NCBI GenBank assembly: GCA_001803415.1
Contig: MHDC01000011.1
Coordinates: 4,642 to 68,641 of the forward strand
Source: Microgenomates group bacterium RBG_16_45_19
GTDB taxonomy: Bacteria; Patescibacteriota; Microgenomatia; UBA1400; RBG-16-45-19
Direction: 5' to 3'
DNA: 64,000 bases
Of the stretch, positions 40,744 to 63,984 are shown one piece after another. Numbering within the stretch: the first letter of the stretch is position 1; every line of letters begins with the position of its first letter. The translations under genes and the position numbers were made by a program. The notes beneath the pieces are model-generated. The model saw nothing but the letters and a program-made list of their open reading frames with translations, was not told the origin of the DNA and did not search any database.

Positions 40744-42555
40744 TTAGCCTTGCGCTTGTCTGATTTTCTCTTGGGGATTGGTGGTGACTAAAACGTGTTC
40801 TTCTTTGGAAGCAACCACTCTTAAGGCGACATGGTTTTGACCGGCAAAGAAAATACCTTCGCCAATCTCCGAAGACATTAATAGCCGCTTCTCACCCTCG
40901 GACAAATAGAAAGTCTTGGCCACTTGGTCAATGGCCGCGGGCGACTGCTTCATTAAAAATTGAATCGATGAATTGGTGACTATGGCTTTACCTTGGTCAG
41001 TGGTAAGGAAATCAGACACATCCTGAGTAATGGTAGTCACTCCCAAGAAATATTTACGGGCCCGTTTGGCCATACTAAAGAGGAAGCTGGCCGATTCGGG
41101 ATATTTCATTAAATACCAGGCTTCGTCGACGACTAAGATTCTTTTCTTTAGATTTTTTTTAATCCGAGTCCAAATAAAGTCCAGAATGAGGAACATGGCG
41201 ATGGGCCGGAGGGCGTCTTCCATTTCCTTAATCCCAAAAACAGTAAACTTGTTGTGAATATCCAGGTTGGATTGCTGGTCAAAAATACCCCGGAAAGAGC
41301 CTTTGATAAATTTCTCTAAGCGGTTGGCTAAAGTTAAAGAATCAGCCGACTCCATGCCGATTAATTGTTTGTAGAGATCTTCCATTAAGGGTGGCTGTAG
41401 TTTCTGAGTTTCGGGTTCAGGGGTAATGCCTTTGGCTTGATAGGCAGCCACCAAGGCTCGATCGAGGACGGCTTCCTCATTGGCCGACATTTGGCCAAGC
41501 ATGATCTTCATTAAGGTATGGAGGGAGATGATTTTCAAGCCTAATTCATTTTCTTCGGGGTCATAGAGGGCGGATAAATCAAAGGGATTAATTTTAAAGG
41601 CCGCGTTGAAGGTGAAGTCGAGATATTCGCCATTAACGGCGGCGGTCATATCTTTGTATTCACCTTCCGGGTCGATAATGATGATTTCGGTATCAAACAT
41701 TAAAGAGCGGAGACATTCAAGTTTGACGGAATAGGATTTACCAGAGCCGGATTTGGCAAAAATAACCATGTTGGCATTCTCCATGGAGAAGCGGTCAAAA
41801 ATAACCAAAGAGTCGTTGTGCTCGTTAATACCATACATGATGCCGATATCTTGAGTTAATTCCGAGGAAGTAAAGGGGAAGGTGGTCGCTAAGGAGGTCG
41901 TATCCATGTTGCGTAAAACGTTGAGTTTATCGGTGCCTTGGGGAAGAGTGGTTTTGAAGCCCGGCTCCATTTGCAGGGAAGCCTTCTTGGAAACGATCAA
42001 CAAAGCGCCGAGCATACTTTGAATCTGCTTACTGACGGTGGTTAATTCTTCCAGAGACGGGGAGCTAATAGTGAGGTAGAGACCGAATTGAAAAAAGCGC
42101 TCTTCGCCTTTGGCCAATTGTTCTTGAAGGATACGAGCATCTTCGAGTTTGACCTGTGTGTCAATATTCGGTAGACGGCCGCGCTTGAGATCACTCTGGA
42201 TTTCGGCTTCCATTTCGGTGATCTTACGGCGCAATTCGTCCATGATGGTCTTGCCATCAACGGGAAAGATATGCATGGAAATATCCAGGGAATAATTAAA
42301 ATTAATCAGAGGTGACAGCCAGTTGGCGGAGACAAAGCGGGGATAGCCGGCGACAAAGAAGGTTTGGATATAGTAATTGCCGATCTTGAGGTGGTTGAAT
42401 TCAACGTCGATAGCTTCGGGGGCAATGACGTCTTGGATGGTAACCAGGCCTTGAACGAACAGCTCTTTAGCATCGGGTTTAGCGGCTGTAGCCGCCGGCG
42501 GGGACGGGATAACCTTTTTTTTCTTAAACGGTAGGGCGAGCAGCTTCATAGACAA
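40744..42555 (-). CDS. VirB4/TrbE-family T4SS ATPase, Gram-positive PrgJ/TcpF-like
   Basis: Walker A SGSGKSYS, IIDPEGEY, Walker B ILVVDEAWYL and RKYFLGVTTITQ. The N-terminal domain has the APEAIDV...YIQTFFVAGYP pattern. Confidence 0.7.
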   Translation of the reverse strand: MSMKLLALPFKKKKVIPSPPAATAAKPDAKELFVQGLVTIQDVIAPEAIDVEFNHLKIGNYYIQTFFVAGYPRFVSANWLSPLINFNYSLDISMHIFPVDGKTIMDELRRKITEMEAEIQSDLKRGRLPNIDTQVKLEDARILQEQLAKGEERFFQFGLYLTISSPSLEELTTVSKQIQSMLGALLIVSKKASLQMEPGFKTTLPQGTDKLNVLRNMDTTSLATTFPFTSSELTQDIGIMYGINEHNDSLVIFDRFSMENANMVIFAKSGSGKSYSVKLECLRSLMFDTEIIIIDPEGEYKDMTAAVNGEYLDFTFNAAFKINPFDLSALYDPEENELGLKIISLHTLMKIMLGQMSANEEAVLDRALVAAYQAKGITPEPETQKLQPPLMEDLYKQLIGMESADSLTLANRLEKFIKGSFRGIFDQQSNLDIHNKFTVFGIKEMEDALRPIAMFLILDFIWTRIKKNLKKRILVVDEAWYLMKYPESASFLFSMAKRARKYFLGVTTITQDVSDFLTTDQGKAIVTNSSIQFLMKQSPAAIDQVAKTFYLSEGEKRLLMSSEIGEGIFFAGQNHVALRVVASKEEHVLVTTNPQEKIRQAQG

Positions 42556-42588
42556 AGTGAGACTGGATTAATTATACCAAGAAATTGC

Positions 42589-43023
42589 CTAAAGGGAGGG
42601 TTGATCAAGGATGCGATTAACCAAAGCGTCAGCCGCCGCATTTTGAGTTCGGGGGATAGCCGTAAAAGTGGGGGTGAGGTGAAGAAACTGTATCTTCTGG
42701 TGGACAATTAAGACCAAGTCCTTGAGGTGAGGTTGTTTGATTTTAAATCGACCGGCTAATTGGTTAACGATAAGCTGGGAATCGGAATAAAAGTTAACCG
42801 TAAAAACTGTCTGGGGAGATTCGGGAACAAACGGAGTGAGGGCGTCTAAGGCTAGAATAACGCCTTGGTATTCGGCTTCGTTGTTGGTCTGATGACCGAG
42901 AAAGCGACCACCCTGCTCGAGTATAACCCGAGTAGCGTCATAGATGAGAAAGGCGGCGGCGGCAGGACCGGGATTACTGCGAGCGGCACCGTCGGTATAA
43001 ACCGATAAAGGATAGTTAATCAT
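42589..43023 (-). CDS. rnhA: ribonuclease HI
   Basis: VYTDGAARSNPGPAAAAF...TNNEAEYQGVILAL. Confidence 0.85.
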   Translation of the reverse strand: MINYPLSVYTDGAARSNPGPAAAAFLIYDATRVILEQGGRFLGHQTNNEAEYQGVILALDALTPFVPESPQTVFTVNFYSDSQLIVNQLAGRFKIKQPHLKDLVLIVHQKIQFLHLTPTFTAIPRTQNAAADALVNRILDQPSL

Positions 43024-43481
43024 GAAGCGGTTTTAATTCCCTTGGGACTGACAATTAGGCGACGTTCCCTGGCTTCACCTTCAGAATAAGTGCTAACCCG
43101 AGGATCAGTTTGAAGTTTGAGGTGAACTTGGCGGCGTTCAAAGGCAGATAAGGGTGGAAGGATGATTTCCCGGCCAGATTCAACGGACTGATCGGCTGCC
43201 CGAGTGGCCAGCGCTTCGACTTGAGTTAAACGGAGTTGGCGATAAGCGTTGATATCCACCAGCACCGGTTTAAAGGTGGCTTGGCCCTGATTAGCCATCA
43301 AGTTAACCATTAATTGGAGGGCATCGATAGTCTCACCGTGGTAACCAATCAGAATACCAGAGTCGGCTTCGGCGACGGTGAGTCGAACTTCTTGACGATC
43401 AGCGACAGTTTTAGCCGTCAGCTTGACCGGTTCGATGGCAAAAAATTTCAAGAGTGACTTTAAAGCTTTAGTCGCGGTCAT
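43020..43481 (-). CDS. jag: Jag/KhpB (KH + R3H RNA-binding protein)
   Basis: KH-like LIGYHGETIDALQ and R3H ...LSAFERRQVHLKL. Immediately downstream of yidC. Confidence 0.8.
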   Translation of the reverse strand: MTATKALKSLLKFFAIEPVKLTAKTVADRQEVRLTVAEADSGILIGYHGETIDALQLMVNLMANQGQATFKPVLVDINAYRQLRLTQVEALATRAADQSVESGREIILPPLSAFERRQVHLKLQTDPRVSTYSEGEARERRLIVSPKGIKTAS

Positions 43482-43484
43482 AAA

Positions 43485-44237
43485 TTAAACATGGCTAGGC
43501 TGGAATCGTTTCAAGTAAATTTTAACTCGATTTAGGCCGCCCCAACCAGAGACCAAATACTGCTGAATAATACTAACGACGGTGGATACAATCCAGTAGA
43601 GGGCTAAACCGGAGGGAAAGCGGAGGGTAAAGAGGACGGTCATTAAGGGCATCATGAGGACCATCTGGTTTTGCATGGTGGTGGCCATGTCAGCCATTTG
43701 ATCGGCCTTTTGATCATCAGTTTTGGTGGGGGTAGCCAAAGCCTGGACTCTAGCGGCACTGGGGTCGGCTGCCGGTAAAACCATAAGGCTTAAAAGCAGT
43801 TGAGATAGACCAGCAATGATGGGCAAAATATAGTAGTTGTCAGGTTTAGTCAGGTCAAACCAGAGGAAGGTAGGGTCAATGCCGGTGGTACCGCCGTTAA
43901 GGTAAGTGATAAAGACCCGATAAAGAGCAATGAGGATAATAAATTGAAGCAAATAGGGGAGACAGCCGGCGGCCGGATTGATTTGATGAGTTTTGAAGAG
44001 GGCCATTTGGGCTTGCTGTAGGCCTTTGGGATCACCCTTATACTTGGCTTTTAAAGCGTCGATCTCGGGTTTTAAATCGCGCATTTTGATGGCCGAACGC
44101 ATGGCCGGCAGAGTTAAGGGAATGAGGACCGCTTTGATGCCGACAGTCAGGAGAATAATAGCCCAGCCTAAACTGCCGGTAAGGGTAGTCAGCCAAGTGA
44201 GTAGTTGGGCCAGGGGGGCGGTCAGAAAATCAAACAT
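43485..44237 (-). CDS. yidC: membrane protein insertase YidC/Oxa1 (short form)
   Basis: KMRDLKPEIDALKAKYKGDPKGLQQAQMALFK...NPAAGCLPYLLQFIILIALY. Confidence 0.9.
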   Translation of the reverse strand: MFDFLTAPLAQLLTWLTTLTGSLGWAIILLTVGIKAVLIPLTLPAMRSAIKMRDLKPEIDALKAKYKGDPKGLQQAQMALFKTHQINPAAGCLPYLLQFIILIALYRVFITYLNGGTTGIDPTFLWFDLTKPDNYYILPIIAGLSQLLLSLMVLPAADPSAARVQALATPTKTDDQKADQMADMATTMQNQMVLMMPLMTVLFTLRFPSGLALYWIVSTVVSIIQQYLVSGWGGLNRVKIYLKRFQPSHV

Positions 44238-44361: not shown

Positions 44362-45303
44362 TTAAGGTAAGGGGTCGGGCCAACCCAACTCGCTTCTGAT
44401 AACTGCCAAGGCGTGAGGATATTGGTCTGGGGTAAGTTGGTTATTTAAGACACAAGACTGTTTATTTTTTAGGCCAACACAGCCAAAACAGTCAGTACAA
44501 TTAGATAGACCGGAACTGTAATAGCAGTTGGTACATAAGCTACAGTACTCTAAAAAGGCAGAGTGATAATTACTACTGCCACCACAGATTTCGTAACATA
44601 ACTCCTGCCAGGTACCGCTGAGCATAGCTTGCAAATTTGATCCCGAAGCCGATCCACCACCAAATGAGGTGTCCCAGGAATCACGAGCCATGCCACTATC
44701 GTAGATATAACCGGAATTCTCAACATAATAAGAGTTAAAACCCCAATACATATCTTTACAGTTAGTAATATAGTCACCATACGGACAGTTTTCCGTTTGA
44801 CGCTGCATGCTCTGGGGGACCGGGGTAGACTGCTTGAGCAAAGTAAATTGAGACAAGATTTGATCAAGCGATTGTTGCTTGACGAGCTCAAGTTGTTGAT
44901 GATAGTCAGCCTGACTGAGTTGCCGATTAAAGAGACAGTATTTTTTATTAGACAGGGCGACACAGCCAAAACACGAGTCACAATTAAAACATTGATAACA
45001 ATAATGGCAATCACGACATTTGGTGCAATCTTGAGAATAGGTTAGGCGATAGCAATCGAGACATTCGATGGACTCATAACAAAGTTCAGACATGCCGCAG
45101 TAAAGGCAATCAACAAGGTGCTTTCCGTTACAAAGAAAGCAATAGCTACAAGCTTGGCTACTGAGACATAAAATACAATAATGACAATTTTGGCTATAAT
45201 GGGTGTAATCACAATATTCACATGCTTCAGGATTAGTGAGGCGTAGGGCTGGAACGGGGATTGATTGACGCAGTTGATGGTAACTGTCTAAAAATTTGGC
45301 CAT
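44362..45303 (-). CDS. extremely cysteine-rich protein with an internal duplication (unknown family)
   Basis: 313 aa with about 50 Cys in repeated CxxC(xx)C units. Two homologous halves each end C(F/T)(N/D)C(D/T)xCFGCVxLxNKxxCxxNxQL. Start codon abuts the upstream zinc-ribbon gene stop. Confidence 0.5.
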   Translation of the reverse strand: MAKFLDSYHQLRQSIPVPALRLTNPEACEYCDYTHYSQNCHYCILCLSSQACSYCFLCNGKHLVDCLYCGMSELCYESIECLDCYRLTYSQDCTKCRDCHYCYQCFNCDSCFGCVALSNKKYCLFNRQLSQADYHQQLELVKQQSLDQILSQFTLLKQSTPVPQSMQRQTENCPYGDYITNCKDMYWGFNSYYVENSGYIYDSGMARDSWDTSFGGGSASGSNLQAMLSGTWQELCYEICGGSSNYHSAFLEYCSLCTNCYYSSGLSNCTDCFGCVGLKNKQSCVLNNQLTPDQYPHALAVIRSELGWPDPLP

Positions 45304-45585
45304 TTAGACAACTTTGGTTAGATCAACCTGACTACGGAACTCTTCATAACATTTGAGACAATAGACAATCATGCCTTTGTCGGGATTAACTGTAGTCACC
45401 ATGCTCTGACCACATTTAGCGCATAGATATTTATAGAATTGGCGCTCATTTCTCAAACTAAGACGACGCTGATGACGACAGTCAGGACAATTAGTCGGCA
45501 GAGGTAAACCCATTCTCTTATAGAAAGCTAATTCCTGAGTAATGAGCTTAAACGCTTTAGAACAAGTTTGACATTTTTGCGGCAT
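45304..45585 (-). CDS. zinc-ribbon protein (two CxxC pairs x2)
   Basis: CQTC...CPDC and CAKC...CLKC. Confidence 0.5.
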   Translation of the reverse strand: MPQKCQTCSKAFKLITQELAFYKRMGLPLPTNCPDCRHQRRLSLRNERQFYKYLCAKCGQSMVTTVNPDKGMIVYCLKCYEEFRSQVDLTKVV

Positions 45586-45600: not shown

Positions 45601-47901
45601 TTATACTATGGGTTCTTCAAAAGTGGGTTTTGAGGGTGGTTTAGGCAATCGCTGGCTGGAAATCAAATCAACCACCGGACCGGCTTGTTGAAGATATTGG
45701 GCAATTTCGGCCGGTGATTTGCCATAGCGTTGACGTGATAAGGTTTTGATCTGGGCGGCCAAATTTTTAGCGCTTGGTTTAACGGTTAAGGTGGTCGCTG
45801 AGAATGGTTCAGTGGTTTTACCGACGACAGAAAGCTTGGCGTAAACTTCACGGATATTAAGGTTGATTAAATCCGCCTGATTGACGCCGGGAGTGAATTC
45901 TTTGGCTAAAAAGGCCGCATCTTCGGGGCCGGTCCGAAAGGTGATAAAGGAGCCGACGTTACCGAAAACAGTTTTGCGAATGGCGGGAGTAAGCTGGTCG
46001 AGGTATTGATGAGCGATGGTAATGGCGAGATTAAATTTACGGGCTTCGGATAAGAGCTGGTTAAAGGAGTCGGTAGCAAAATGCTGAAATTCATCGACAT
46101 ATAAATAAAATTCCGGTCTTTGGTCTTCCGGTTGGTTAACCCGGGCCATAGTGGCTTCTTGAATCTTGGTAAGAATCATGGAGCCTAATAGAGCGGTGTT
46201 TTCTTCACCGAGTTTCCCTTTAGCAATGTTGATAACAATAATTTTGGCTTCATTCATGGCAGTGGAAAAGTCAAACGCCGACTGAGGTTGACTGACAACA
46301 TGACGGATATAATCGTTGGAGATAAATTGACCTACTTGATTAATCAGGGGAATAATGGCTTCGTTGTCGAATTTCTCGTTCCAGGCAGTAAATTCGTGGG
46401 TCCAAAAATTTTTAACCACCGGGTCTTCGAGTTGAGCAATGAGTTGATGACGATAGTCAGTTTCGGTTAATAAACGGACAATATCGATGACGGTGGTGTT
46501 TCCGACTTCAACTAGAGCCAGAACGATAAAGCGGAGGACGTGTTCGAGACGACTATTCCATTGAGCCCCAAACAATTTTTTAAAAATAGCAATAAAACCG
46601 GTCACCACTTGATATTTAGCCTCAGGGGTTTCGCAGGTGAGCGGATTAAATCCCAAGGGGTGGGTAGTATCGGAGGGATTGAAATAGATAACATCATTAA
46701 CGCGTTTTGGGGGAATATGGGAGAGAATATTTTCGGCCAAGTCACCATGAGGATCGATAACACAAAAGCCCTTATCAAAAAAGATATCGGAAAGGATGAG
46801 AAGTTCGATAAGTTTACTCTTACCCATGCCGGTTTTACCGACGATATAGGCGTGGCGGTTACGATCCCGGCGGTCCAAGCCGAATTCGAGGCTGGTTTCC
46901 CGATATAAAGTTTTACCAAAAATAGAGTGGTGGGGTTGGTCTAAAAATTGACCTTTTGGCAGATTCTGAGGCGGCGGGAGATAATTGGCGGCGACGTGTT
47001 CCAGGTTAGTAATATGTAATGAGGAATCGGGAAAATGGAAAATGGCGGCCAGTTCACGGGAATTTAAGATAAAGGGATTAGGAGAGAGGCTGCGGGCCAT
47101 AAAGCGCTGTTTGATGGCTTCAGGTTGGGATGGAGACACCACTAGGGCATTAATGTCACTCAGACTGAGTTTATCCAGGGCTTTACTGACTAAGCCAAGA
47201 TTTTCGTTGACTTCGGTAGTTGAGGGAGCAGATATGGCGACGCGAAGGTTGGCATAAAATAGTTTTGAGTCAAACTTCTGTTTGACAACTTGATAATAGT
47301 TAATCGCTTCTTTTTCAAGAAAGGGATGATGAAGAAAGCGATTCAGGTTATTTAAGGCGCCAATAATAAATGAGAATTTTTCTCGGAGAAATTGGCGCGA
47401 CCAGGATTCAGAAGTAGGTTTAAGGAGTATTTGCAGACATACCCCCTCTTCATAATGTTCGAGTTTGTTAAGGACAGCAGCCAGCATCAGATAGGGGTCT
47501 GACTGAGAGGTAAAACTAGTTTTGAGGGGGAAAAATGACGATCTTTCTAAGGTGAATTCGGTAAAGACTTGTTTTTGACCATGGACTTTAATCTCCACCG
47601 CCGCTTGAGTAATTTCGACGCGATTAAATTTAGTGTAAATTAAAGGAGTAATGACCGCGGCCAATGGCTGGGGGGCAACAATTTGAAAGCTAAAATAGTT
47701 TTCCTGTAACCAGACTTCGCAACTGATAGTGTCGGTCGGCTGATGCGGATTAAGTCGAGTCTTAGCCAACTTATGTAAATCTTCAAAAAAAGCGGTGAAG
47801 ATGGCGACGGAATTTTCAAGATCGAGGGGTGCTTTAAGGCGGAGCACCTGTTTCGGTTGGATCATGACGGTTTGGCCACCCCAGGTGGCATACGTAGCCA
47901 T
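45601..47901 (-). CDS. TraD/VirD4-like (T4CP / DUF87 HerA-FtsK-like) ATPase, no N-terminal TM
   Basis: Walker A GKTGMGKS, IDPHGDL, Walker B FYLYVDEFQHF and RKFNLAITIAHQYLDQL. Confidence 0.65.
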   Translation of the reverse strand: MATYATWGGQTVMIQPKQVLRLKAPLDLENSVAIFTAFFEDLHKLAKTRLNPHQPTDTISCEVWLQENYFSFQIVAPQPLAAVITPLIYTKFNRVEITQAAVEIKVHGQKQVFTEFTLERSSFFPLKTSFTSQSDPYLMLAAVLNKLEHYEEGVCLQILLKPTSESWSRQFLREKFSFIIGALNNLNRFLHHPFLEKEAINYYQVVKQKFDSKLFYANLRVAISAPSTTEVNENLGLVSKALDKLSLSDINALVVSPSQPEAIKQRFMARSLSPNPFILNSRELAAIFHFPDSSLHITNLEHVAANYLPPPQNLPKGQFLDQPHHSIFGKTLYRETSLEFGLDRRDRNRHAYIVGKTGMGKSKLIELLILSDIFFDKGFCVIDPHGDLAENILSHIPPKRVNDVIYFNPSDTTHPLGFNPLTCETPEAKYQVVTGFIAIFKKLFGAQWNSRLEHVLRFIVLALVEVGNTTVIDIVRLLTETDYRHQLIAQLEDPVVKNFWTHEFTAWNEKFDNEAIIPLINQVGQFISNDYIRHVVSQPQSAFDFSTAMNEAKIIVINIAKGKLGEENTALLGSMILTKIQEATMARVNQPEDQRPEFYLYVDEFQHFATDSFNQLLSEARKFNLAITIAHQYLDQLTPAIRKTVFGNVGSFITFRTGPEDAAFLAKEFTPGVNQADLINLNIREVYAKLSVVGKTTEPFSATTLTVKPSAKNLAAQIKTLSRQRYGKSPAEIAQYLQQAGPVVDLISSQRLPKPPSKPTFEEPIV

Positions 47902-48470: not shown

Positions 48471-48605
48471 TTAAGCCGCCAGGCGCCGACGACTCTTAAG
48501 GCGACGGTGGTGTAAGACGGACCGACCGGGTTTGGTCTTTTGGCGAGCTCTAAAGCCATGAGTTTTTTGGTAATGGCGTTTTTTGGGTTGATAAGTACGC
48601 TTCAT
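48471..48605 (-). CDS. rpmH: 50S ribosomal protein L34
   Basis: Absent from the ORF track (44 aa). Translated by hand: [44 protein letters not shown]. Confidence 0.9.
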
Positions 48606-54317: not shown

Positions 54318-57041
54318 TTAGGGAATAATGGGTACACTGGTAGCACCAGTAGCGGCATCATAACATTCAAGATCGATACATTGGCCGTATTGGACATTGG
54401 TCATATTTCCGGGGAAGAGACTACGAATGTCCGGGCGGCCACCGTCACAACGGACTTCGTAGTGTAAGTGGGGGCCAGAGCTATTGCCAGTGTTACCAGA
54501 TAAGCCTAATTGGGTACCGGCAGCCAGGCTAGCCCCAGCCGCTGTACCTTCAGGAATAGTGATTTGCGACATATGAGCAAAGTATAAACGGCAATTGGAT
54601 AAATTGCCGGAATTGGGGGGAGTGCCGATGTTGACGATGGCGAGGTTGCCGTAACCTTGGTTGTTCCAGCCGGCTGAGACGAGAGTCCCGGCGAAAGGTA
54701 AGATGACGGGGGCGCCTTCAGGCAGATCGATATCAATGGCCGAACCACCATTGGCATCGGTGGAAGGGTGACTTTCGGGCATATAACCATTGAAACAGAC
54801 CCGACCAATGACCGGCCAGCAAACCATCCCTTGGACATTAAAAGAGACGAGTGGACCGGTATAGGCTGGACCGGGGCCACCGTGACCCGGACCGGAAACA
54901 GCATCGGGAATGCCGTCGCCATTAGTGTCAATATATTCGGCATCAATGCCATAGCTACTCAAAGAGATGGTTTGGGCGGAGGTGAGTTTGAAGGTATGAA
55001 AATGGCGCCAGACGGACAAACCAATGATAGCACCAGTGGCGGAGACGGCTATCCAGATAGCAGCGGTACCAATGGCAGCGGCGGCAATCAGACCGACTTC
55101 AGGCAAACTGAGACCGATAGCGGCTAAGCCGGAACCGGCTTTAGCGGCCAGACCTTTAAGAGCACCACCGATAGAAGTGAGTAGGGGACGGAGAGCCGTC
55201 CCGATCTGAGTAAATGCAGCTCGAACTGTCGGTAACATTTTTTCAAAGCCAACCTTGATGACGGAAAAACCGTTTTGAATAGCCGAACCTAAAGCCCTGA
55301 ACTTGGCCGGTAATTGAGCCGCAGCGGTTTTATAGCCACCGGAGAAAAAAGTGCGAGTGGATTGGAAGGTTTGGGAAAGAAAACCACGAGTATTGGCCAA
55401 GAAACCGCCTGAGGGCTTGAGTGTAGGGAGGCCAAGCTGAGTTCGAACGTAGCGGAAAACGCCGGAGGGAGAAGCTTCGGGGATGTTTTCAAAGACTTTG
55501 GGAAAAAGGCGGCGAGCCCAGCTGTTTTTGGCCAGGATTTGCTGAGCGAGTTGAGGGAAATGCTGTTGGCGTTGATGGACGTCTGCTTGATAATAATGGA
55601 TGGCCTCGGGACTGGTTAGGGTGTGGATTAGGTCTCGGTGGTTGATTTTACCCTCGGCAAGAGCTTGAGTAATGACCGTTTGTGCTTCGGGTCTGAGGCC
55701 ATGACTGACAATATAATAAGTAGCGGTAGTAATGGAGGTGTCATCCATGGCGGCCAGATTTAGTCCATAGGGTTCGAGAAGTTGATGATGGGGAGTAAGA
55801 TTTTTAGTAACCGGTCGATGATGCTGTGGTTCCCCGCTGGTGATTAGAGACAAGCTAACGGCATGGGCGACAATGGGTTCAGCCACGGCCGCATGACGGA
55901 GGGGTGGAGGGGAATGGGTGGGGAGACTGGACTGAATGACCTGAGTAACCTCATAAGCACTCAAGGATTTAAAGGCGGATTGGGTATTAATTTCGGTTTC
56001 GATGCGGGCGGCGGTAACCGAATCGAGACCTTTTTGAATGAGGGCGTCGTAAAAAGAAGAATGATGGCTATCGAGAGTGTCAATGGCTTGAATGATAGTT
56101 TTTTGAGGGTGGCCAGAACGGAGCTGATCCTGGAGATATTTAATGGTGGTTAAGGTGTCTGAAGAGGCAGTAGGCACCAAGTGCTCCAATTGGTCGGCAG
56201 CGCCGTTAGGGTCGCCTTGGGCAATTTCGGCTCTAACTTGGTTAAGAACGGCTCTTTGGGGATAGACAGCGGTTTCAAGCTCTTGCATCAGGGTACTCTG
56301 GTGAGTCAGGTTTTCACGAGCTTTTTTAACCGCTTGATTTTCGATAAGGTCTTGAGTGATGGCGGTTAGGCTTTTTTCTAACAACTGGGGATTGTTTTTT
56401 TGAGCAAAGCGAAGAGCAGTGTTTAAACGAGTGGGGCTAGCTTCAAGAATCTTGACGGTAAACTGAGTGAGAGTTTCGGGAGTCAAAGGGAGACCATGAA
56501 GAGTGAGAGCTTGACTAATAACAGAGGCAATTTCATCTTTATTAATGTAAAGATCGGGACGAGCCAGACCAGCATTAGCAGCATTGGCAATGAGAAGGGC
56601 TTGAGCTTTTTCAGCTGCGGCAATGGCAGCGGCATTGAGTTTAGCTAGAGATTCAGCGGCGTGACGTTGAGCCTCGAGGTATTTTTGGACTTGGATGGCG
56701 GCTGGACCCTTAGTTTTAGCAGCGGCTTTGGCTAAATGAGGGACAACGGCAGTAGCTTCGCCTTTTTTGGGGGCAATTTTAAGGGTTAATTGCTGGATAG
56801 AATTGAGGAGAACTGAAGCTTCGGTAGGATTAGTCAGCGAAGCTAAGTTGACTTGGAGATGTTGAGTTAGGGGATTGGAGCGAAGATTGGCGACGAAGGC
56901 TTTAGCCAGTTCTTGCCGTAGAGTGAAGGGGATGTCGATGTCGGGATCGGCTAAGAAAGCAGCTTGCTTGAGGAGGTTGGAGTAGGTATTATCGAGCTTG
57001 ATTAGTTGATTAAGTTGAGTGTCTAAGTCAACGTCGGGCAT
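54318..57041 (-). CDS. large membrane protein with a C-terminal M23 (LytM) peptidase domain
   Basis: 907 aa: alpha-helical N-terminal 600 aa, two TM helices (GLAAKAGSGLAAIGLSLPEVGLIAAAAIGTAAIWIAVSATGAIIGL), then an M23 domain (HPSTD..., GYGNLAIV, GPHLHYEV). Confidence 0.7.
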   Translation of the reverse strand: MPDVDLDTQLNQLIKLDNTYSNLLKQAAFLADPDIDIPFTLRQELAKAFVANLRSNPLTQHLQVNLASLTNPTEASVLLNSIQQLTLKIAPKKGEATAVVPHLAKAAAKTKGPAAIQVQKYLEAQRHAAESLAKLNAAAIAAAEKAQALLIANAANAGLARPDLYINKDEIASVISQALTLHGLPLTPETLTQFTVKILEASPTRLNTALRFAQKNNPQLLEKSLTAITQDLIENQAVKKARENLTHQSTLMQELETAVYPQRAVLNQVRAEIAQGDPNGAADQLEHLVPTASSDTLTTIKYLQDQLRSGHPQKTIIQAIDTLDSHHSSFYDALIQKGLDSVTAARIETEINTQSAFKSLSAYEVTQVIQSSLPTHSPPPLRHAAVAEPIVAHAVSLSLITSGEPQHHRPVTKNLTPHHQLLEPYGLNLAAMDDTSITTATYYIVSHGLRPEAQTVITQALAEGKINHRDLIHTLTSPEAIHYYQADVHQRQQHFPQLAQQILAKNSWARRLFPKVFENIPEASPSGVFRYVRTQLGLPTLKPSGGFLANTRGFLSQTFQSTRTFFSGGYKTAAAQLPAKFRALGSAIQNGFSVIKVGFEKMLPTVRAAFTQIGTALRPLLTSIGGALKGLAAKAGSGLAAIGLSLPEVGLIAAAAIGTAAIWIAVSATGAIIGLSVWRHFHTFKLTSAQTISLSSYGIDAEYIDTNGDGIPDAVSGPGHGGPGPAYTGPLVSFNVQGMVCWPVIGRVCFNGYMPESHPSTDANGGSAIDIDLPEGAPVILPFAGTLVSAGWNNQGYGNLAIVNIGTPPNSGNLSNCRLYFAHMSQITIPEGTAAGASLAAGTQLGLSGNTGNSSGPHLHYEVRCDGGRPDIRSLFPGNMTNVQYGQCIDLECYDAATGATSVPIIP

Positions 57042-57246: not shown

Positions 57247-57711
57247 ATGAATGACGCCATAAGCCATAAGCCATTAGCTATAAGCCAAAAGTCTGATCCT
57301 TTCTTAGCGGATGAGTTGGATGAGAGGAGGATTGGAGTGATGGTAAAGTTTTGGGTCGAGGGGGCAGAGGAGGCGTGGGAGATTGCACAAGCATTGGATA
57401 AAAACAAAAAGTACAGTTATGCCTTGTTTTTCTGTCATTTGGCTTTGGAAAAGCAGATTAAAGCGGTGGTGGTGCGAGTGGTCAGAAAACCGCCGATTCC
57501 GTCCCACGATCTGGTGCGACTGCTCAAGATGTTGGGAATTGAATTGAACGATAGCCAAAAGGCAGAACTTAAAGAAGTTAATTCATTTAACCTTGAGGCA
57601 AGGTATGATGATTATAAGAGGCAGTTTTACTTAAAAGCAACGAAAGAGTACACAGAGAAATGGATGAAGAAGTGCGAGGAGTATTTAATATGGCTAAAAG
57701 AAAAGATATAG
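57247..57711 (+). CDS. HEPN-domain protein (HepT-like toxin)
   Basis: ALFFCHLALEKQIKA... is a HEPN helix pattern. The true start may be the ATG at 57340, which has a perfect AGGAGG RBS 9 nt upstream. In that case the upstream 93 nt, including CCATAAG-like heptamer repeats, is leader. Confidence 0.55.
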   Translation: MNDAISHKPLAISQKSDPFLADELDERRIGVMVKFWVEGAEEAWEIAQALDKNKKYSYALFFCHLALEKQIKAVVVRVVRKPPIPSHDLVRLLKMLGIELNDSQKAELKEVNSFNLEARYDDYKRQFYLKATKEYTEKWMKKCEEYLIWLKEKI

Positions 57712-58016
57712 ACCAGGAACTGCTGGTAATGATGAAGCGCTATAAAAAAGTATTGGTGACGGCGAACATTAGGCCGGAGTTTATGGCGGTGTTTGGGTCG
57801 CAAGTTAAGGGGACCGCCAAACCATATTCAGATATTGATGTTTGTATTGTGTCGAAGGATTTGTCAGCCGACCCGGTGGATGATTACGTTAGATTGTCGA
57901 TGTTGGCCGATAAGGTTGATGACCGGATCGAGCCTCACGGATTTCTACCGGAGGATTTTGACCCAACAATGGATTCACTGGCTTATGAGGTAAAGCGAAC
58001 TGGGGTAGTGATATAG
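57690..58016 (+). CDS. minimal nucleotidyltransferase (MntA-like antitoxin)
   Basis: VFGSQVKGTAKPYSDIDVCIV (GS-x9-13-DxD). Overlaps the HEPN gene by 22 nt. Confidence 0.6.
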   Translation: MAKRKDIDQELLVMMKRYKKVLVTANIRPEFMAVFGSQVKGTAKPYSDIDVCIVSKDLSADPVDDYVRLSMLADKVDDRIEPHGFLPEDFDPTMDSLAYEVKRTGVVI

Positions 58017-58028: not shown

Positions 58029-58472
58029 ATGAATGACCAGAAAAACCATCAACCATCAAATACTAACCAACCTCAACCCCATGACCCCTTTTTAGCCGAT
58101 GAGCTGGATGTGCTGGAGGCAGTGGCGAAGTTGGAGCAGAAGTACGGGAAAAAGATTTTAACCGAGGAGCAGAGGGGAAAACTTTTACAAGCCAGGAGGG
58201 GTGAAGGTGGGCAAACTGCTGAAGTCAGTGTAACAAAGATTAATCAATTAAAATCAATAGGTGGTATTGGACAGAAAGAAGCAGAGTGGTTGGTGGCAGC
58301 TTTAAGGGCTAAATTGAAGAATGACATTAGTAATAATTTAGGGAAATATAGCTGGGATAGTTTTAGTGAGAAACAAAAGCAATATGTGATTTCGTGTTAT
58401 TTCCAATTAGTTTACGGGACATCGGAGTACCATTTGGCGGAATTGTTGGCTGGAGGAGGCAAGAATGCCTGA
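58029..58472 (+). CDS. small protein with a helix-hairpin-helix motif
   Basis: INQLKSIGGIGQKEAEWLVAAL is HhH-like. The N-terminus shares MND...DPFLADELD with the HEPN ORF. Confidence 0.4.
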   Translation: MNDQKNHQPSNTNQPQPHDPFLADELDVLEAVAKLEQKYGKKILTEEQRGKLLQARRGEGGQTAEVSVTKINQLKSIGGIGQKEAEWLVAALRAKLKNDISNNLGKYSWDSFSEKQKQYVISCYFQLVYGTSEYHLAELLAGGGKNA

Positions 58473-61400
58473 AAGATCTGAGTTGGAAGTTTTAGTACCT
58501 CAAATGAGGCGGGTGTTGCCGCCAGAATATATGGTGGGGCCGATTGGGGAGGCGATCTTGAAACCTGATTATCGAGACTTAGATCTATTTACTCCGGAGG
58601 AATCAGCAAAAATTGTGGCAGGGATGGAAAAGTATGCCGGTGGAGATATCCGTGATTTTGATTTTTTAACAGAGAAGGTGGATGTATTGGGTGATTCGAA
58701 GGTATTAACGCCGCGTATGCCCCATTTGTTATCTGATTTAGGAGTAAGCGAATTATTAACTGGATTAGCAGACCGTAAAATTAATATTGAGCAAGTAGAT
58801 GTTGAGGATAAGCGTTTTAAGAGATTGTCTGGATTGTTAGTCGAGTTAGATAATTTTTTACGAAGCTCTGGAGGGCGTGGCGATTTACGTGATGAATTAA
58901 GTGGATTAAGCCTGGAAGATTTAAAGGAAATTGCGAGAATTGAATTAGTCGGAGCTGATGAACAGGCGGGGCGATTAAATTTTCAGGATCCAGAACGTGG
59001 AGCTCAAGATGTGCGGGAAGCGATTGAAAAATGGAGAGCAAGGAAAAACTTACATCGGGTGGTGACGATTCCGGCAGATTACTATCAGGCTGAAAGTGGT
59101 TTACCCGGGGGGCAGTTAATAGTGCCTGATGACATGTTTGTTCCAGGAACGCGGGTGATTAAACCCAATTTATTAGATCGACCAGTGATTGTGCGTCAGG
59201 TAAACGGAGGAGGGTTTGCAGTGGTGCCAATGGCGGAGAGACCACTGGTTAACATAAAAGATGATAAGCTTGGATACCGACGGGTAGTGGAACGGTTTCA
59301 AGTAATAGAGTTTGTCAAAAGATTAGCGCACGGCGAGGGCGATGAGCAACAGTTCTTAAGAGTATTGCAATTAGCTTTCAAGGCTGAGGGGTTAGATCAA
59401 GGGACGTTAATTAAAGCGTATCTACCAGGGATGAAAAAAGCGATTGAGTTTTATGATTACGCAACGAAGGCAACGGAAAAAGATGACATACGTGGGGCGA
59501 AGCAGTTTGTGATGAGTCCAATCGAACAGGCATCCTTGTTAGCAGTACCAGAATCAACGTTGTTATTTGATTTTGGTAAAGATAAGGCAGGGAATGAAAG
59601 GTTAGCCCCCTTTTATATTGGGGTGAATAGGGTGGTGGATTCGTTGTGGGGGGATTATGGCCGGTGGAAGAAACAGGAAGGGGAATGGTTGTTTATTCAC
59701 CCATATAGTCCTAATGAACCGAAGGTACTCTCAGCCTTTCGACCTGAGTTGAGGGGGATGTTACGTCCGGTATATGTACCGGAAGAAGACCCGATGAGAA
59801 TAGGTCGCACAATTGCGGCCCAAGAAATGTATACGATGCAGCCAATGATGCGGGAAGAATTGGGGGGGATTAGTTGGTATGAGCAAACCACAAATGAAAT
59901 GAAAGCTTTTGTTGCCGAGAGGAATTGGAGTTTTGATGAGTTGGTGGGGATTCGGGGGGTTTTATTTGACAATGGGAGACCTTTAGTGATTTCCTCTAAG
60001 AAAATACAGGAGAAAATAGCGGAGGCGGGCGGAAACGTTAGTGCTGGAATTGAAATGATGTTGCAAACACCAATGTTTGCAACACACGTTGAAGAATTAG
60101 TAGCTGGTTGGGGATTGTCAGCTCTCTTTCAGAGAGAACGGAGGGGAGATTTGTTACTGGCGTCTGATTTTGTCAGTGAATTAGCAATAAATATGGGGAT
60201 GAGGGATGCCCATACAAAGAAATATTTACTTTTACCACCTGAAACAATCCGGATGGTGCGGAATTGGCATAAAGAATTTGAATTTTGGAAAAAGGAATAT
60301 GTTGATTGGATGATAATAGCCTTGAAAAGCAAGAAGGGATTTAGGGCAACTTTTAGAAATGTATTAAATCCGGATAACTCGCCAGAAATTGCCCCGATTT
60401 GTTTTAGGAATGAAACAAATGCAGACGGTAGCCTGAAAAGTATTGCACAGAAAATTGGCGAATTAGAGAGTAAAAATAAGATTGGGGAGTTAAGCGATGA
60501 AGAACTGATTTTGTGGAATAATTTAAAGAATGGAACGACATTGGTGGAGGCATTGTTGTATGGGCGAAATGAGTGGGGGTTTTCGACTGTTTTTCGTAAT
60601 ATGGCAAATGGACTGGTGGATTTAAGTAATAAGGCTAAAGAAGCGCGGAAGGATGGTAAAACTGGTAAAGCCGAAGGGCTAGAAAAGTTAGCTAGGGACT
60701 TAAAGGTTAAGGCATTTAAGACCTATGTGCTGGGATATAGTGATTTAGCGCCTAATGCTTTTAGACGCGGACAACAGCAGATAGGCCCGCTTTTACAGAC
60801 GGTGCAGGAAGATCAGGAAATGATGGAATGGCTTGCGGATTTTAATTTTGGGCCTTTATTAGATTCAGTGGGAGACCAATCTGGGGTGAAGGATCCGATC
60901 GGGCGAACGTCTTTAACAGGATTTTCACTATGTATGAAGATGCGAGGTTCGCGCAATATTATGGTGGGTGAAGTAGATAAGCCAGGGAAATATATTACCA
61001 AATATCCTTATGTAGCGGCGGAGTTGGGATCAAGTATGTTAGCGGCGGTACCGACGTTAAATAATGCCATAAACTCAATGATTATGAATTTAGCTTTTGG
61101 GAAACCGGACCGTTTAGAGGCAATGAGTGCGGACCAATTTGGAGAGGCTTTGGCCAAGATGGTGGTGGACTGGTTATTTGTAGGAATGCGGTCACAATCA
61201 GAGACTTCACAACTATTAAAGGAAGGGATTGAGGCGTTTGTAGATAAAGCTTTGATAAATACTGCTCACCTGTCGGCTTTGGAGGGGGAAGAACTAGTAG
61301 CTAATACTTTTAGGGAAATTCATCGAGTATCTCAAGGGATGATTGACACGGCACTGATTTACCAAAAATCGTTTAGGCGTGAAAGCGTGGAAGAAAGTAA

Positions 61401-61926
61401 GGTTGACTTGGCTACTAAGAGAGCTGGGGTTCAATATCTATCATTTGATGGGAACGACCCGTTGGCGGTTGAAGTAATAAGAGGTGCGGGATTTGATACA
61501 AATTATCCGTCTGAGATCGCTGGCAAGAAACCGTATGTGTCGTTGGGTGATGAAGCGTTGGATTTAGCGAGCGTAGAGGTGATTGCAGGTTTTGTGGAGG
61601 GGGGTGTGAATGTGAAAGAAGTATTAAGAAAAGTATCTAGTTTTAGCGCGTATGGACACCGGGGGGCGGAAGCGTTGACAGTGATAATTATGTCAATGTT
61701 TGCACGAGATAAGCTGTTGTATTCTAAAGAGCGAGAGGATCTTTTATTATCAACTCTAAAGATTGATAGAAGTTTTTTTGAAAGAATTAAGTATATCGCA
61801 GCGGTGAAATTACTAGAAATTGAAGAAGCTGAAGGAGGTGAAGTTGTACAAGTATCTAAAGATAATGAAGAGAGTGAGGCTCCATCAGCGACTAAAGAGA
61901 ATGAAGGTGGCGAGATTCCAGATTAG
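58465..61926 (+). CDS. 1153-aa orphan protein with no recognisable domain
   Basis: Long uninterrupted ORF overlapping the upstream gene by 8 nt. About 43% GC with TTA/AAA/AAT-rich codon use, unlike the rest of the window. No TM segments or catalytic motifs recognised. Acidic C-terminus. Confidence 0.6.
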   Translation: MPERSELEVLVPQMRRVLPPEYMVGPIGEAILKPDYRDLDLFTPEESAKIVAGMEKYAGGDIRDFDFLTEKVDVLGDSKVLTPRMPHLLSDLGVSELLTGLADRKINIEQVDVEDKRFKRLSGLLVELDNFLRSSGGRGDLRDELSGLSLEDLKEIARIELVGADEQAGRLNFQDPERGAQDVREAIEKWRARKNLHRVVTIPADYYQAESGLPGGQLIVPDDMFVPGTRVIKPNLLDRPVIVRQVNGGGFAVVPMAERPLVNIKDDKLGYRRVVERFQVIEFVKRLAHGEGDEQQFLRVLQLAFKAEGLDQGTLIKAYLPGMKKAIEFYDYATKATEKDDIRGAKQFVMSPIEQASLLAVPESTLLFDFGKDKAGNERLAPFYIGVNRVVDSLWGDYGRWKKQEGEWLFIHPYSPNEPKVLSAFRPELRGMLRPVYVPEEDPMRIGRTIAAQEMYTMQPMMREELGGISWYEQTTNEMKAFVAERNWSFDELVGIRGVLFDNGRPLVISSKKIQEKIAEAGGNVSAGIEMMLQTPMFATHVEELVAGWGLSALFQRERRGDLLLASDFVSELAINMGMRDAHTKKYLLLPPETIRMVRNWHKEFEFWKKEYVDWMIIALKSKKGFRATFRNVLNPDNSPEIAPICFRNETNADGSLKSIAQKIGELESKNKIGELSDEELILWNNLKNGTTLVEALLYGRNEWGFSTVFRNMANGLVDLSNKAKEARKDGKTGKAEGLEKLARDLKVKAFKTYVLGYSDLAPNAFRRGQQQIGPLLQTVQEDQEMMEWLADFNFGPLLDSVGDQSGVKDPIGRTSLTGFSLCMKMRGSRNIMVGEVDKPGKYITKYPYVAAELGSSMLAAVPTLNNAINSMIMNLAFGKPDRLEAMSADQFGEALAKMVVDWLFVGMRSQSETSQLLKEGIEAFVDKALINTAHLSALEGEELVANTFREIHRVSQGMIDTALIYQKSFRRESVEESKVDLATKRAGVQYLSFDGNDPLAVEVIRGAGFDTNYPSEIAGKKPYVSLGDEALDLASVEVIAGFVEGGVNVKEVLRKVSSFSAYGHRGAEALTVIIMSMFARDKLLYSKEREDLLLSTLKIDRSFFERIKYIAAVKLLEIEEAEGGEVVQVSKDNEESEAPSATKENEGGEIPD

Positions 61927-61942: not shown

Positions 61943-63604
61943 TTAAGATACTTCAGACGAAGGCTTCTGTTCCTTACCAGTGGTTCCAATGTTGACGGGT
62001 GTAGATCTACCAAGATTGCGGAGTCTATTGTACTGGGTATGAGTCATACGTTCCCCGGTGGTACTAACGTCACTACTGGCGGCGGCATCTTTACTAACTG
62101 CTCTGCCAGCTTTGTATTTTTGCCACCAACCACCGATATTCTGGGCGGTATACGATAAGCCAACTTGAGTGGCCGCGCCACCAACCATAGCAAATGGAGC
62201 TCTGATGACCCCATAACCGCGTTTGGCGTTTTCGAAGGCCTGAGCGCCGTATTTGTCTTCTTCCACTTTTAGGAATCCCTTGACTATTTTAACCACTTCG
62301 GGTAGTAACATTATAAACCCGAGGCCAATGATGGCCTGGATGGTGCGGGGGCCAAACTCTTCAGTTTCACCTTGGTTGACCCAGGTTATACCCCTGGAGG
62401 TGATGAGGGGAGGGACGAAGCCAGTGTAGTCGGTGCCTCCACCTTCACCAAAGCCAAAACCAGCCCGTTGTTCCCCAGAAGGGGTGATGCCCATACTGGC
62501 AACTGAGTCACCTCCAGCCAGGAAAGCGCCAATGACTACCATGATGATGACGGCCGGGAAAACAGCAGCGTTGGAAATGAGATTTTTTATCCAGGAGCTA
62601 AAAGTACTGGAACCGGGGAAGGCGTTGGTGAGGAGTTGAATGGGAGCGAAGATAACACCGACAATGATACCAATGTAGGCGGAGAGGAGGCCGAAAAAGG
62701 TGCGAAACATGGCGATAAAGATGGCAATGGCGATAGCCAGGTAGAAGACGGAGTCGAGAATCCAATCAAATATACCACCGGGAAGACCAACGAGTCCTTG
62801 AACCATAGCGGAAACAGCATTAGCCGTATCGCCGGCCACTTCCATAGGGGAAATAAAATACTTAATGCCGATGCGGAAGATGCTTAAGCCAAAGAGAGCA
62901 TTAGCAGCAGTGGTGAGGTCGCTGATGATGCCGGCGGCTTCCAGGATGCTTAAAGCCCCCATGCCAACGAGATAGATAAGATCAACGACAAAGCCGGCGA
63001 TGGCATAGGAAAAGGTGATCAGGATAAGGGTGATGATTAGCTTGGGTAAGGCTGCCTGAATGGTGACCACGGTCTGTTGGTCGATTTGAGCCCGAAACAT
63101 AATCATGAAACCGACGACTATAAAGACAATGATAAAGAGGAAATAAGAGACATTGCGAAAAGCTTTCCAGACTTGAAGGATGGGGGAAAGGGAGGAGAAA
63201 CCAAGACCTTGGGCGTAAGCCTGGGGAACTAAATGAGTGTTTTTAAGGACATCAGCCAGATATTCGCCAGTAGTAGCAGGAGGAACAACGGCGATGTAAC
63301 TAATACCTTGGGCTAAGACGGCCACCGCCCCTCCGTAGTGATAATTAAAAGTACCGTCGGTGTTTTCGGTGGCCTCAATGGAATAGAAAGATTGACCGAC
63401 ATTGGTGGTGTCGGCTCCCCAACCTTCTTTGGAGAATTTAGCCATATTGAGAGGCTGGTCATCTTCGGCGGCCTTGATGAAATCTTTCATGTTTCGAGCT
63501 TGGATTTGAGAGAGATGAGGGAAGAAGTTGGGAATGATGAGGAGAGAAATCCCGATGAGGTAGAGAATTAAATGAGAATGAGGCAGAAGTTTAGAGAGGG
63601 ACAT
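61943..63604 (-). CDS. VirB6/TrbL-like polytopic membrane protein
   Basis: 553 aa with at least six strongly hydrophobic helices, a Gly-rich extracytoplasmic loop and a hydrophilic C-terminal tail. This is the architecture of VirB6 / PrgH-TcpH-like proteins. Confidence 0.45.
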   Translation of the reverse strand: MSLSKLLPHSHLILYLIGISLLIIPNFFPHLSQIQARNMKDFIKAAEDDQPLNMAKFSKEGWGADTTNVGQSFYSIEATENTDGTFNYHYGGAVAVLAQGISYIAVVPPATTGEYLADVLKNTHLVPQAYAQGLGFSSLSPILQVWKAFRNVSYFLFIIVFIVVGFMIMFRAQIDQQTVVTIQAALPKLIITLILITFSYAIAGFVVDLIYLVGMGALSILEAAGIISDLTTAANALFGLSIFRIGIKYFISPMEVAGDTANAVSAMVQGLVGLPGGIFDWILDSVFYLAIAIAIFIAMFRTFFGLLSAYIGIIVGVIFAPIQLLTNAFPGSSTFSSWIKNLISNAAVFPAVIIMVVIGAFLAGGDSVASMGITPSGEQRAGFGFGEGGGTDYTGFVPPLITSRGITWVNQGETEEFGPRTIQAIIGLGFIMLLPEVVKIVKGFLKVEEDKYGAQAFENAKRGYGVIRAPFAMVGGAATQVGLSYTAQNIGGWWQKYKAGRAVSKDAAASSDVSTTGERMTHTQYNRLRNLGRSTPVNIGTTGKEQKPSSEVS

Positions 63605-63660
63605 AGGGTTAAGATTTATTGTACTTTGGATTAGTCGAGCGGTGCAAGCTTAAGGATGGT

Positions 63661-63984
63661 TTAGGGTTGGCAATTGGCGGGGAGGGTGGGGGTAAAGATG
63701 TCAAGCCAGAGGCGGATGCCGTCGGGGAAGTTGGAGGGGAAAGGTGGGCAAGTGCCATAGCCGACTTTCCAGCGGCAGAGGAGCTGCTCCAGGTCGCCGC
63801 CGACGGTATTTAGAGTGTTGGCCAGCTGTTGGATTTGGCTGGCCATGGAGCCACCACCGCGAGCGCCCAAATAGTCGCGGGATATAGCGCCAAAAGCTGA
63901 CTCGTGAGCGGCCAAGGCCATGACTAAGGCGGGATTGAGACCTGCCTGTACGGCTAGATTCTGCAGTTGTTGCCAGTCGCTCAT
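63661..63984 (-). CDS. small hypothetical protein, weakly lytic-transglycosylase-like
   Basis: ALVMALAAHESAFGAISRDYLGARG weakly resembles the SLT catalytic ES..G...S..GA.G motif. 107 aa. Confidence 0.25.
   Translation of the reverse strand: MSDWQQLQNLAVQAGLNPALVMALAAHESAFGAISRDYLGARGGGSMASQIQQLANTLNTVGGDLEQLLCRWKVGYGTCPPFPSNFPDGIRLWLDIFTPTLPANCQP

Follow-up and report, generated by a model that had tools for sequence, protein, structure and literature searches.

The window considered here is a stretch of 64,000 nucleotides (contig MHDC01000011.1, positions 4,642 to 68,641) from the Microgenomates group bacterium RBG_16_45_19, and it carries, beside dnaA and dnaN, the genes of a type IV secretion system (T4SS). 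We assign a probability of roughly 0.85 to the reading that this locus is the known chromosomal T4SS of the Patescibacteria, or candidate phyla radiation (CPR), present here in a Microgenomates genome with a displaced virB4. A first-pass annotation, made from the sequence alone, had listed seven T4SS-like genes interleaved with housekeeping genes near the replication origin and had taken the system to be dispersed. All seven open reading frames (ORFs) are present in the ORF list, on the minus strand and at the positions of Table 1, and the housekeeping genes rplY, rnhA, jag, yidC, yidD, rnpA, rpmH, dnaA and dnaN could be verified by Pfam or, for rpmH, via the translation. The dispersal itself, however, did not hold, as the system is normally compact and a single gene has moved in the closest relatives. 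Pfam scanning covered ca 57 ORFs of the window, and NCBIfam, PDB profiles and Foldseek were used for selected proteins.

The gene order was compared with that of 80 loci (labelled L001–L080) with as much as 10 kb to either side of virB4, obtained by a scan with a VirB4 alignment and one genome per species. All of them are from Patescibacteria, chiefly from Microgenomates-group lineages. The usual order in these relatives is a compact M23-p308-PrgI-TrsD-VirB4 cluster, with TrsD immediately upstream of virB4 in 68 of the 80 loci, and the cluster and dnaA are followed by rpmH, rnpA, yidD, yidC, jag, rnhA and then, past a gap, rplY. The gene dnaA is located within 10 kb of virB4 in 69/80 loci, at a median distance of ca 1 kb, and the dnaA-adjacent cluster recurs in loci of Woese-, Beckwith-, Collier-, Chisholm-, Pace- and Cerribacteria. 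The synteny across the lineage, which the first-pass annotation had proposed as a check, is thus conserved.

In the window, on the other hand, TrsD abuts dnaN, while virB4 is found between rnhA and rplY, beyond the block that runs from dnaN and dnaA over rpmH to rnhA. It starts 33 bp downstream of rnhA and lies ca 9 kb from trsD and 6 kb from dnaA, separated from trsD by the rpmH-dnaA-dnaN block with its putative oriC spacer (48471–51533) plus rnpA through rnhA. Among the 80 loci, this order is seen only in L001–L004 and L010, which are the five with the highest VirB4 identities (74–78%). It is also seen in L166 and L167, two metagenomic contigs that have a VirB4 78% identical to that of the window and are the two closest relatives with a pilin array; there too, TrsD abuts dnaN. 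Since only the closest relatives have the order of the window and the others are compact, the interleaving can be attributed to a recent clade-specific rearrangement, and from the gene order the displacement of virB4 appears to be a recent, clade-specific translocation of one gene on the same strand. The interleaving then has two causes, namely the old, lineage-wide site of the cluster beside dnaA/dnaN and a recent rearrangement in the subclade, by which virB4 came to follow rnhA, the end of the rpmH-rnpA-yidD-yidC-jag-rnhA string.

It should be noted that the gene order of the window is not a mis-assembly, because the stretch from dnaN to valS, including the positions of virB4 and of the gene for a type IV coupling protein (T4CP)-like ATPase discussed below, is 100% identical in four independent ENA assemblies. 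One independent ENA contig, L161, stops 18 codons short of the dnaN stop, just before the dnaN/trsD junction. The conservation of the proteins was also compared. For the same genome pairs, the median identity is 68% for VirB4, 50% for TrsD, 55% for L34, 46% for YidC, 44% for DnaA and 31% for DnaN, a contrast between VirB4 and the housekeeping proteins that is somewhat inflated by the loci having been picked by VirB4 similarity. Being more conserved than DnaA or YidC in the same loci, VirB4 bears the signature of a core gene under strong constraint. Together with the linkage to dnaA, this bears out the chromosomal, non-conjugative nature of the system that had been proposed.

The VirB4 protein scores 383.6 bits against NCBIfam NF045971 (VirB4-like conjugal transfer ATPase, CD1110 family; curated cutoff 325), with a match that spans only positions 179–734 of the 752 in the model. 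Pfam gives P-loop_TraG at 3e-27, plus AAA_10 and DUF87, and the match to PDB 4AG5, the solved structure of a Gram-positive VirB4, is at 1.7e-41. The Walker A motif AKSGSGKS could be read from the translation and the Walker B motif ILVVDE was found by a pattern search. Homologues with at least 68% identity number in the thousands in Patescibacteria. The TrsD-like gene is the ATG-start form (51505–52257) of the ORF 51505–52287. Its product matches positions 113–233 of NCBIfam VirB4_plasma (5e-8) as well as TrsD (4e-6), in each case under the curated cutoff, and homologues that are 65% identical to it are recorded with PF26593 (TraC-like). Judged from these alignments, the TrsD-like protein would provide the N-terminal domain that is absent from the VirB4 of the window, so that the two would constitute a split VirB4 motor. 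The 3′ ends of trsD, on the minus strand, and dnaN, on the plus strand, converge with an overlap of 29 nt (51505–51533).

Four of the proteins are membrane proteins. The PrgI-like protein has two transmembrane (TM) segments and reaches 31.6 bits against Pfam PF12666 (cutoff 27), with an additional match to PF13620 at 5e-7; the fusion of PrgI to a CarboxypepD_reg-like domain is also present in L166 and L167. The 907-aa protein matches Pfam PF01551 (Peptidase_M23) at 2.9e-15, has one or more TM segments near residues 638–678, and retains the HxxxD, His and HxH motifs as HPSTD, AHM and HLH. An M23 protein is found at the equivalent position of the cluster in 28 loci, and the 907-aa protein is the candidate cell-wall hydrolase of the T4SS. 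In at least 25 relatives p308 is likewise flanked by the M23 gene and PrgI, with syntenic homologues in 25 loci at 19–27% identity and about 217 cluster representatives. Profiles built from 25 and from 150 of its homologues gave no Pfam or PDB match, a word-indexed homologue search retrieved only p308 itself, and a single-sequence AlphaFold model has a predicted local distance difference test (pLDDT) value of 43, which makes it unusable. A VirB8-like role for p308 would be a guess only.

The fourth membrane protein, VirB6-like, has at least six TM segments, and its position upstream of the cluster is conserved in relatives, including L165–L167. Searches of Pfam, NCBIfam and PDB sequence profiles were all without a match, and none of 692 homologues has a Pfam family. 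An AlphaFold model made from an alignment of 121 sequences has a pLDDT of 78, and when this model is compared by Foldseek with 350,542 PDB chains, the top five are all TrwI/VirB6 of plasmid R388, the best with E=0.05, a probability of 0.97 and a TM-score of 0.42 (normalised to the target). Considering what the first-pass annotation had said of these genes, the VirB4/PrgJ-like ATPase is upheld by the curated NCBIfam cutoff and the PDB 4AG5 match, the PrgI/VirB3-like protein by the gathering score of PF12666, and the M23 hydrolase membrane protein by its Pfam match, motifs and TM segments. The polyproline protein called VirB4-N-like is confirmed as a TrsD-like VirB4 N-domain, with scores under the curated cutoffs. 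What had been called an anchored exoprotein (p308) indeed has an N-terminal TM anchor, and beyond anchor and position, with no family match, nothing was added. Finally, the protein called VirB6-like is polytopic, with a fold match and a conserved position, while support from a sequence family is absent.

The cluster runs off the end of the window. The ORF listed there with 107 aa (63661–63984) has a frame that is open to base 63999, and since there is no upstream stop before the window ends, it is the C-terminal part of a longer ORF. The fragment includes an AHESAF motif and has no direct family match in Pfam or NCBIfam. In L165–L167, a gene for 770–834 aa, with a faint SLT match in L167, is located upstream of the VirB6-like gene, and judged from this position the fragment probably corresponds to the ca 800-aa SLT-like protein of these relatives. 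Upstream of this gene, in turn, are 6–7 tandem T4SS_pilin (PF18895) genes, seven in both L166 and L167, accompanied by a divergent gene for an extracytoplasmic function (ECF) sigma factor. It had been noted earlier that no relaxase, integrase or pilin gene is seen. In the Pfam scan of the ca 57 ORFs no relaxase, integrase or transposase family was found, which agrees with that statement. The lack of a pilin, however, is most likely an effect of the window edge, because the relatives carry the pilins where the cluster leaves the window.

Table 1. Genes and features of the window discussed in the text, with strand and basis of assignment.
Feature	Position	Strand	Basis
rplY	39873-40658		Pfam
VirB4-type ATPase (CD1110/MPF_FATA-like), without N-terminal domain	40744-42555	-	Pfam, NCBIfam, PDB
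RNase H (rnhA)	42589-43023		Pfam
Jag/KhpB	43020-43481		Pfam
YidC	43485-44237		Pfam
Cys-rich protein, 313 aa (Cys313)	44362-45303	-	T4CP module
Treble-clef zinc-finger protein, 93 aa (zf93)	45304-45585	-	T4CP module
T4CP-like ATPase, DUF8128 + TrwB_AAD_bind, without TM anchor	45601-47901	-	Pfam, NCBIfam, precomputed DUF8128
YidD	47926-48141		Pfam
RnpA	48145-48456		Pfam
rpmH	~48471-48605	-	Translation
DnaA	48685-50184	+	Pfam
DnaN	50403-51533	+	Pfam
TrsD-like protein, free-standing VirB4 N-terminal domain, poly-Pro tail, 250 aa	51505-52257	-	NCBIfam (sub-cutoff), homologues
PrgI/VirB3-like membrane protein with C-terminal CarboxypepD_reg-like beta-sandwich domain	52365-53381	-	Pfam
p308, bitopic membrane protein without recognisable family, 308 aa	53388-54314	-	N-terminal TM anchor, conserved position
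Membrane protein, 907 aa, C-terminal M23 peptidoglycan endopeptidase domain	54318-57041	-	Pfam, motifs, TM
HEPN / MNT-type nucleotidyltransferase pair, toxin-antitoxin-like	57247-58016	+	Pfam HEPN 1.4e-16, NTP_transf_2 5.7e-9
p147 (small, conserved) and p1153 (large, acidic, soluble, hypervariable) pair	58029-61926	+	Position in relatives
VirB6-like polytopic membrane protein, 553 aa	61943-63604	-	TM segments, fold match, position
C-terminal fragment of a larger ORF leaving the window	63661-64000	-	Open frame; position as for the ~800-aa protein of relatives

The neighbourhood of the replication origin, to which the system had been said to be wired, is supported by synteny and by one perfect DnaA box (48714–48722) in the rpmH-dnaA spacer; a convincing cluster of boxes is absent, and a change in the sign of the GC skew at dnaA was not found. 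The skew there rises from 0.19 to 0.31 with its sign unchanged, and the plus strand is G-rich across the whole window (1–64000), including third codon positions, genes of both strands and both sides of dnaA. Among the 49 relatives with enough flanking sequence, the skew steps up at dnaA in all 49 and changes sign in 29, and it is positive on both sides, as in the window, in six, one of which is a complete Beckwithbacteria genome. Because the skew keeps its sign at dnaA, the location of the origin is deduced from synteny.

A relaxase-less, dnaA-linked chromosomal T4SS of Patescibacteria has already been published, in 2023 and 2025, and the earlier interpretation of the window is essentially the published one. 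Wang et al. (2023) used transposon sequencing (Tn-seq) to show that S. epibionticum, a Saccharibacterium, cannot grow epibiotically without its T4SS, an unusual system of Gram-positive-like type (PMC10633639). This system is located at SEML1_0006–0019, with pilins present and a recognisable coupling protein and relaxase absent. Quinonero-Coronel et al. (2025) describe a monophyletic clade of Patescibacteria VirB4 related to MPF_FATA (PMC12102498), and their survey covers TrsD, PrgI and M23-containing hydrolases and gives relaxases as nearly absent. According to the same survey, VirB6 is scarce and VirB2 arrays are abundant in Microgenomatia, and virB4 is located near dnaA, dnaN, rnpA and rpmH in Paceibacteria and Microgenomatia, for which a gene-dosage hypothesis is offered. 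The same points are made again in a 2025 review (PMC12857230).

The window system shares with this clade a VirB4 of the MPF_FATA type, a TrsD-like partner, PrgI/VirB3, a putative VirB6-like protein and hydrolases of the M23/lysozyme type. It also resembles it in being chromosomal, without a relaxase and beside dnaA/dnaN/rnpA/rpmH, with tandem VirB2-like pilin arrays in the close relatives. It differs in the ca 9 kb between virB4 and trsD, in the T4CP-like module inserted in the housekeeping string, and in the hypervariable opposite-strand gene pair that its subclade has inside the cluster. The Gram-positive conjugative systems (pCF10 Prg/Pcf, pIP501 Tra and the CTn2 CD1110 type) share with it a VirB4/PrgJ-like ATPase, a PrgI-like VirB3, a polytopic, putatively PrgH/VirB6-like protein, a dedicated cell-wall hydrolase and the lack of outer-membrane core components. 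Unlike them, the window system is without a relaxase, an oriT context or a PrgB-type adhesin, its hydrolase is M23 and not CHAP, its VirB4 is split and pilins are expected, and it is chromosomal and vertically inherited instead of residing on a mobile element. The rvh T4SS of Rickettsia, which is also cited in PMC12102498, belongs to the diderm VirB/D (MPF_T) type and has duplicated components spread over several islands. It is similar in being chromosomal in a reduced-genome, host-dependent bacterium, with parts at more than one site and outside any conjugative context, whereas the window has one gene displaced from an otherwise compact, monoderm-type cluster.

The T4CP-like ATPase encoded between yidD and yidC had been counted among the T4SS genes as TraD/VirD4-like, and this assignment could not be maintained. 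Like a canonical coupling protein (VirD4/TrwB), it has a TrwB-type nucleotide-binding and all-alpha domain; unlike one, it is without an N-terminal TM anchor and without linkage to a T4SS or relaxase. The score for Pfam TrwB_AAD_bind is 36.1 bits (cutoff 20.5), the Walker A (GKTGMGKS) and Walker B (YLYVDE) motifs are intact, and no hydrophobic segment is present in the first 340 residues, which correspond to DUF8128. A profile of its family finds TrwB (8e-5) and then DotL (2.6e-4) as the best PDB matches, with alignments that span the Walker A region only. In the 80 virB4 loci, yidD directly neighbours yidC, and homologues of the T4CP-like protein, zf93 and Cys313 do not occur in any of them. 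With the T4CP-like protein as query, a scan of metagenomes yielded 80 further loci (L081 and L083–L088 among them), and from all of these virB4 (within 10 kb), dnaA and yidC are absent. The trio of T4CP-like, zinc-finger and Cys-rich genes is kept in the closest seven or eight T4CP loci (L081, L083–L088) with varying flanks, which in L084 are housekeeping genes for a PfkB kinase, DeoC, a ribulose-phosphate epimerase and penicillin-binding proteins. The Cys-rich member has ca 300 aa across the loci, and the position of the trio on CPR chromosomes varies independently of that of the T4SS. Around virB4 and around the T4CP module, the search for bounding repeats gave only short, chance-like matches.

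On this evidence the T4CP-like gene is separate from the T4SS, because it is unlinked from virB4 in the relatives, has zf93 and Cys313 as partners and has variable flanks, and the trio is a self-contained module of the chromosome whose insertion between yidD and yidC is confined to this species. Its independence agrees with the remark, in the 2025 survey, that T4CP homologues of Patescibacteria are mostly distant from virB4 and may have other functions (PMC12102498). One could argue instead that the ATPase is the coupling protein of this T4SS and that its arrival by yidC and virB4 represents a functional consolidation into one transcription unit. The co-directional string that it shares with virB4, with gaps of 15–124 bp, would be in line with this, as would the intact Walker motifs, the TrwB_AAD_bind score above the cutoff and the TrwB and DotL profile matches. 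We nevertheless find it unlikely, given that neither gene has the other within 10 kb in the two sets of 80 loci, that the conserved partners are two Cys-rich/zinc-finger proteins and not T4SS parts, that the membrane anchor is missing, and that the T4CP homologue of S. epibionticum is described as dispensable in the survey (PMC12102498).

Two other explanations concern the system as a whole. If the locus were the decayed remnant of an integrative and conjugative element (ICE), an MPF_FATA T4SS would have lost its relaxase and integrase and been scattered by rearrangement, and one might then understand why VirB4 exceeds the cutoff of a family (CD1110) named for the conjugation ATPases of ICEs and conjugative transposons, why a T4CP-like gene is near and why toxin-antitoxin-like genes occur in the region. 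A remnant, however, is contradicted by the dnaA-adjacent position and gene order, conserved in 69/80 species-level relatives, and by a VirB4 that is more conserved than DnaA or YidC and has intact motifs; moreover, the T4CP module elsewhere sits among housekeeping genes. Nor were a relaxase, an integrase or bounding repeats, which the first-pass annotation had named as findings that would speak for an ICE, found in the window, and the cluster is not patchy among the relatives. We have therefore rejected this explanation, which is hardly credible. The apparatus could alternatively import DNA or nucleotides of the host, in the manner of the archaeal Ced or Helicobacter ComB systems, for an organism unable to make nucleotides. 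VirB4 does resemble CedB (6e-13) and the T4CP-like protein CedD (2.5e-5), but these scores are weak, far under the curated cutoffs, and represent generic matches of the ATPase core. Also in favour of import, a relaxase was not found, the T4CP-like gene is unlinked to virB4 in the relatives, and in the class ABY1 the T4SS is co-located with comF, recG and radA according to the survey (PMC12102498). According to the review, which cites Wang 2023, loss of comEC in S. epibionticum abolishes competence and leaves viability, while the T4SS is essential (PMC12857230), so that ComEC-dependent DNA uptake does not explain the essentiality of the T4SS. The evidence of the window does not distinguish import from export, and we regard import as very unlikely.

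Returning to the chromosomal Patescibacteria T4SS, the machine would consist of the split VirB4 motor (TrsD-like N-domain plus ATPase), the PrgI/VirB3-like anchor, the VirB6-like channel protein, the bitopic p308 and the membrane-bound M23 hydrolase and, past the window, probably an SLT-like hydrolase and a VirB2-like pilin array. A VirB4 hexamer would power the assembly of the pilus and the passage of substrates over the single membrane, with the hydrolases opening the cell wall for the apparatus. By analogy, the system may serve contact-dependent exchange with a host cell and not conjugation.

Several points weigh against this reading. The membership of p308, which has no assignable family, is supported by its conserved position only. 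The VirB6 assignment, which comes from a predicted model, is weak but specific and not statistically firm, with a fold match at E=0.05 and zero sequence support. The SLT-like protein and the pilins are placed just past the window, probably correctly, from the gene order of the relatives. The 33-bp spacing makes it plausible that virB4 is co-transcribed with the rnhA string, and it is this spacing from which co-transcription is deduced; a promoter/terminator scan gave counts close to those of shuffled sequence and was uninformative on operon structure. The proximity of the origin is without independent confirmation, as the skew values flanking dnaA are both positive. Finally, the proposed function and essentiality would be extrapolated from published Tn-seq on another class, the Saccharimonadia.

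Between the VirB6-like and M23 genes, inside the cluster, the pair p147/p1153 lies on the opposite strand. A pair in the same position and orientation is present in L166 (11494–15374), L167 (7985–11177), L165 (11732–15780), L009 (1720–4836) and L008 (1433–4675), and L033 has a comparable opposite-strand ORF of 1102 aa, known as an ORF alone. The identity of p147 to its counterparts is 30–59%. Between L166 and L167, the large opposite-strand proteins have an identity of 25% and the VirB4s one of 89%, and p1153 has no Pfam, NCBIfam or PDB match. Since a hidden Markov model of the p147 family matched only L009 among the 80 virB4 loci, the pair is restricted to a subclade. An effector or host-specificity role for the pair would, from the sequences, be speculation. 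A wider proposal, in which the two are a cognate adaptor and secreted effector, or a determinant of host specificity, for a T4SS without relaxase, and in which the move of virB4 ties the expression of the ATPase to a membrane-insertion/RNA-processing operon, we consider rather doubtful.

The HEPN and MNT genes, which overlap by 52 nt, sit in the divergent spacer that separates p147 from the M23 gene. This pair is missing at this position in L166 and L167, and it is an insertion and not a component of the T4SS. Other toxin-antitoxin-like or phage-associated genes are found at 24494–25032 (minus), 11496–12002 (minus), 29289–29708 (plus) and 2989–3822 (minus); these four sites comprise a Phd/YefM antitoxin, whose partner is weakly ParE/YafQ-like, two proteins with a PIN domain and one with a Bro-N domain. 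The stretch 14660–18690 (minus) contains genes like those for the large and small subunits of a [NiFe]-hydrogenase, a ferredoxin-like protein and an FAD/NAD-binding oxidoreductase, and in this reduced genome resembles a module for a cytoplasmic hydrogenase. As for the records behind the virB4 loci, many of the species representatives of L001–L080 bear the title "uncultured Pseudomonadales bacterium" or "Gammaproteobacteria bacterium", with one Limisphaerales and one Nevskiaceae; on Patescibacteria loci, such titles look like placeholder or wrong taxonomic labels.

The Patescibacteria provide the first reported case of a T4SS without which its own bearer does not survive. The window adds nothing fundamental to the picture of this system, and it offers three concrete leads. 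TrsD and VirB4 need not be linked genetically, an argument for separate subunits over a translationally coupled pair; their unlinking in one subclade may be new, in a modest way. The widespread "T4CP" of CPR is a stand-alone module and should therefore not be counted in the T4SS by default, and the definition of the T4CP-zinc-finger-Cys-rich trio as an independent module may likewise be a modest novelty. The opposite-strand pair and the move of virB4 into the housekeeping string are not reported in the excerpts of the published surveys used here and may, modestly, be new, and a candidate substrate of the T4SS is offered by the hypervariable gene within the cluster.

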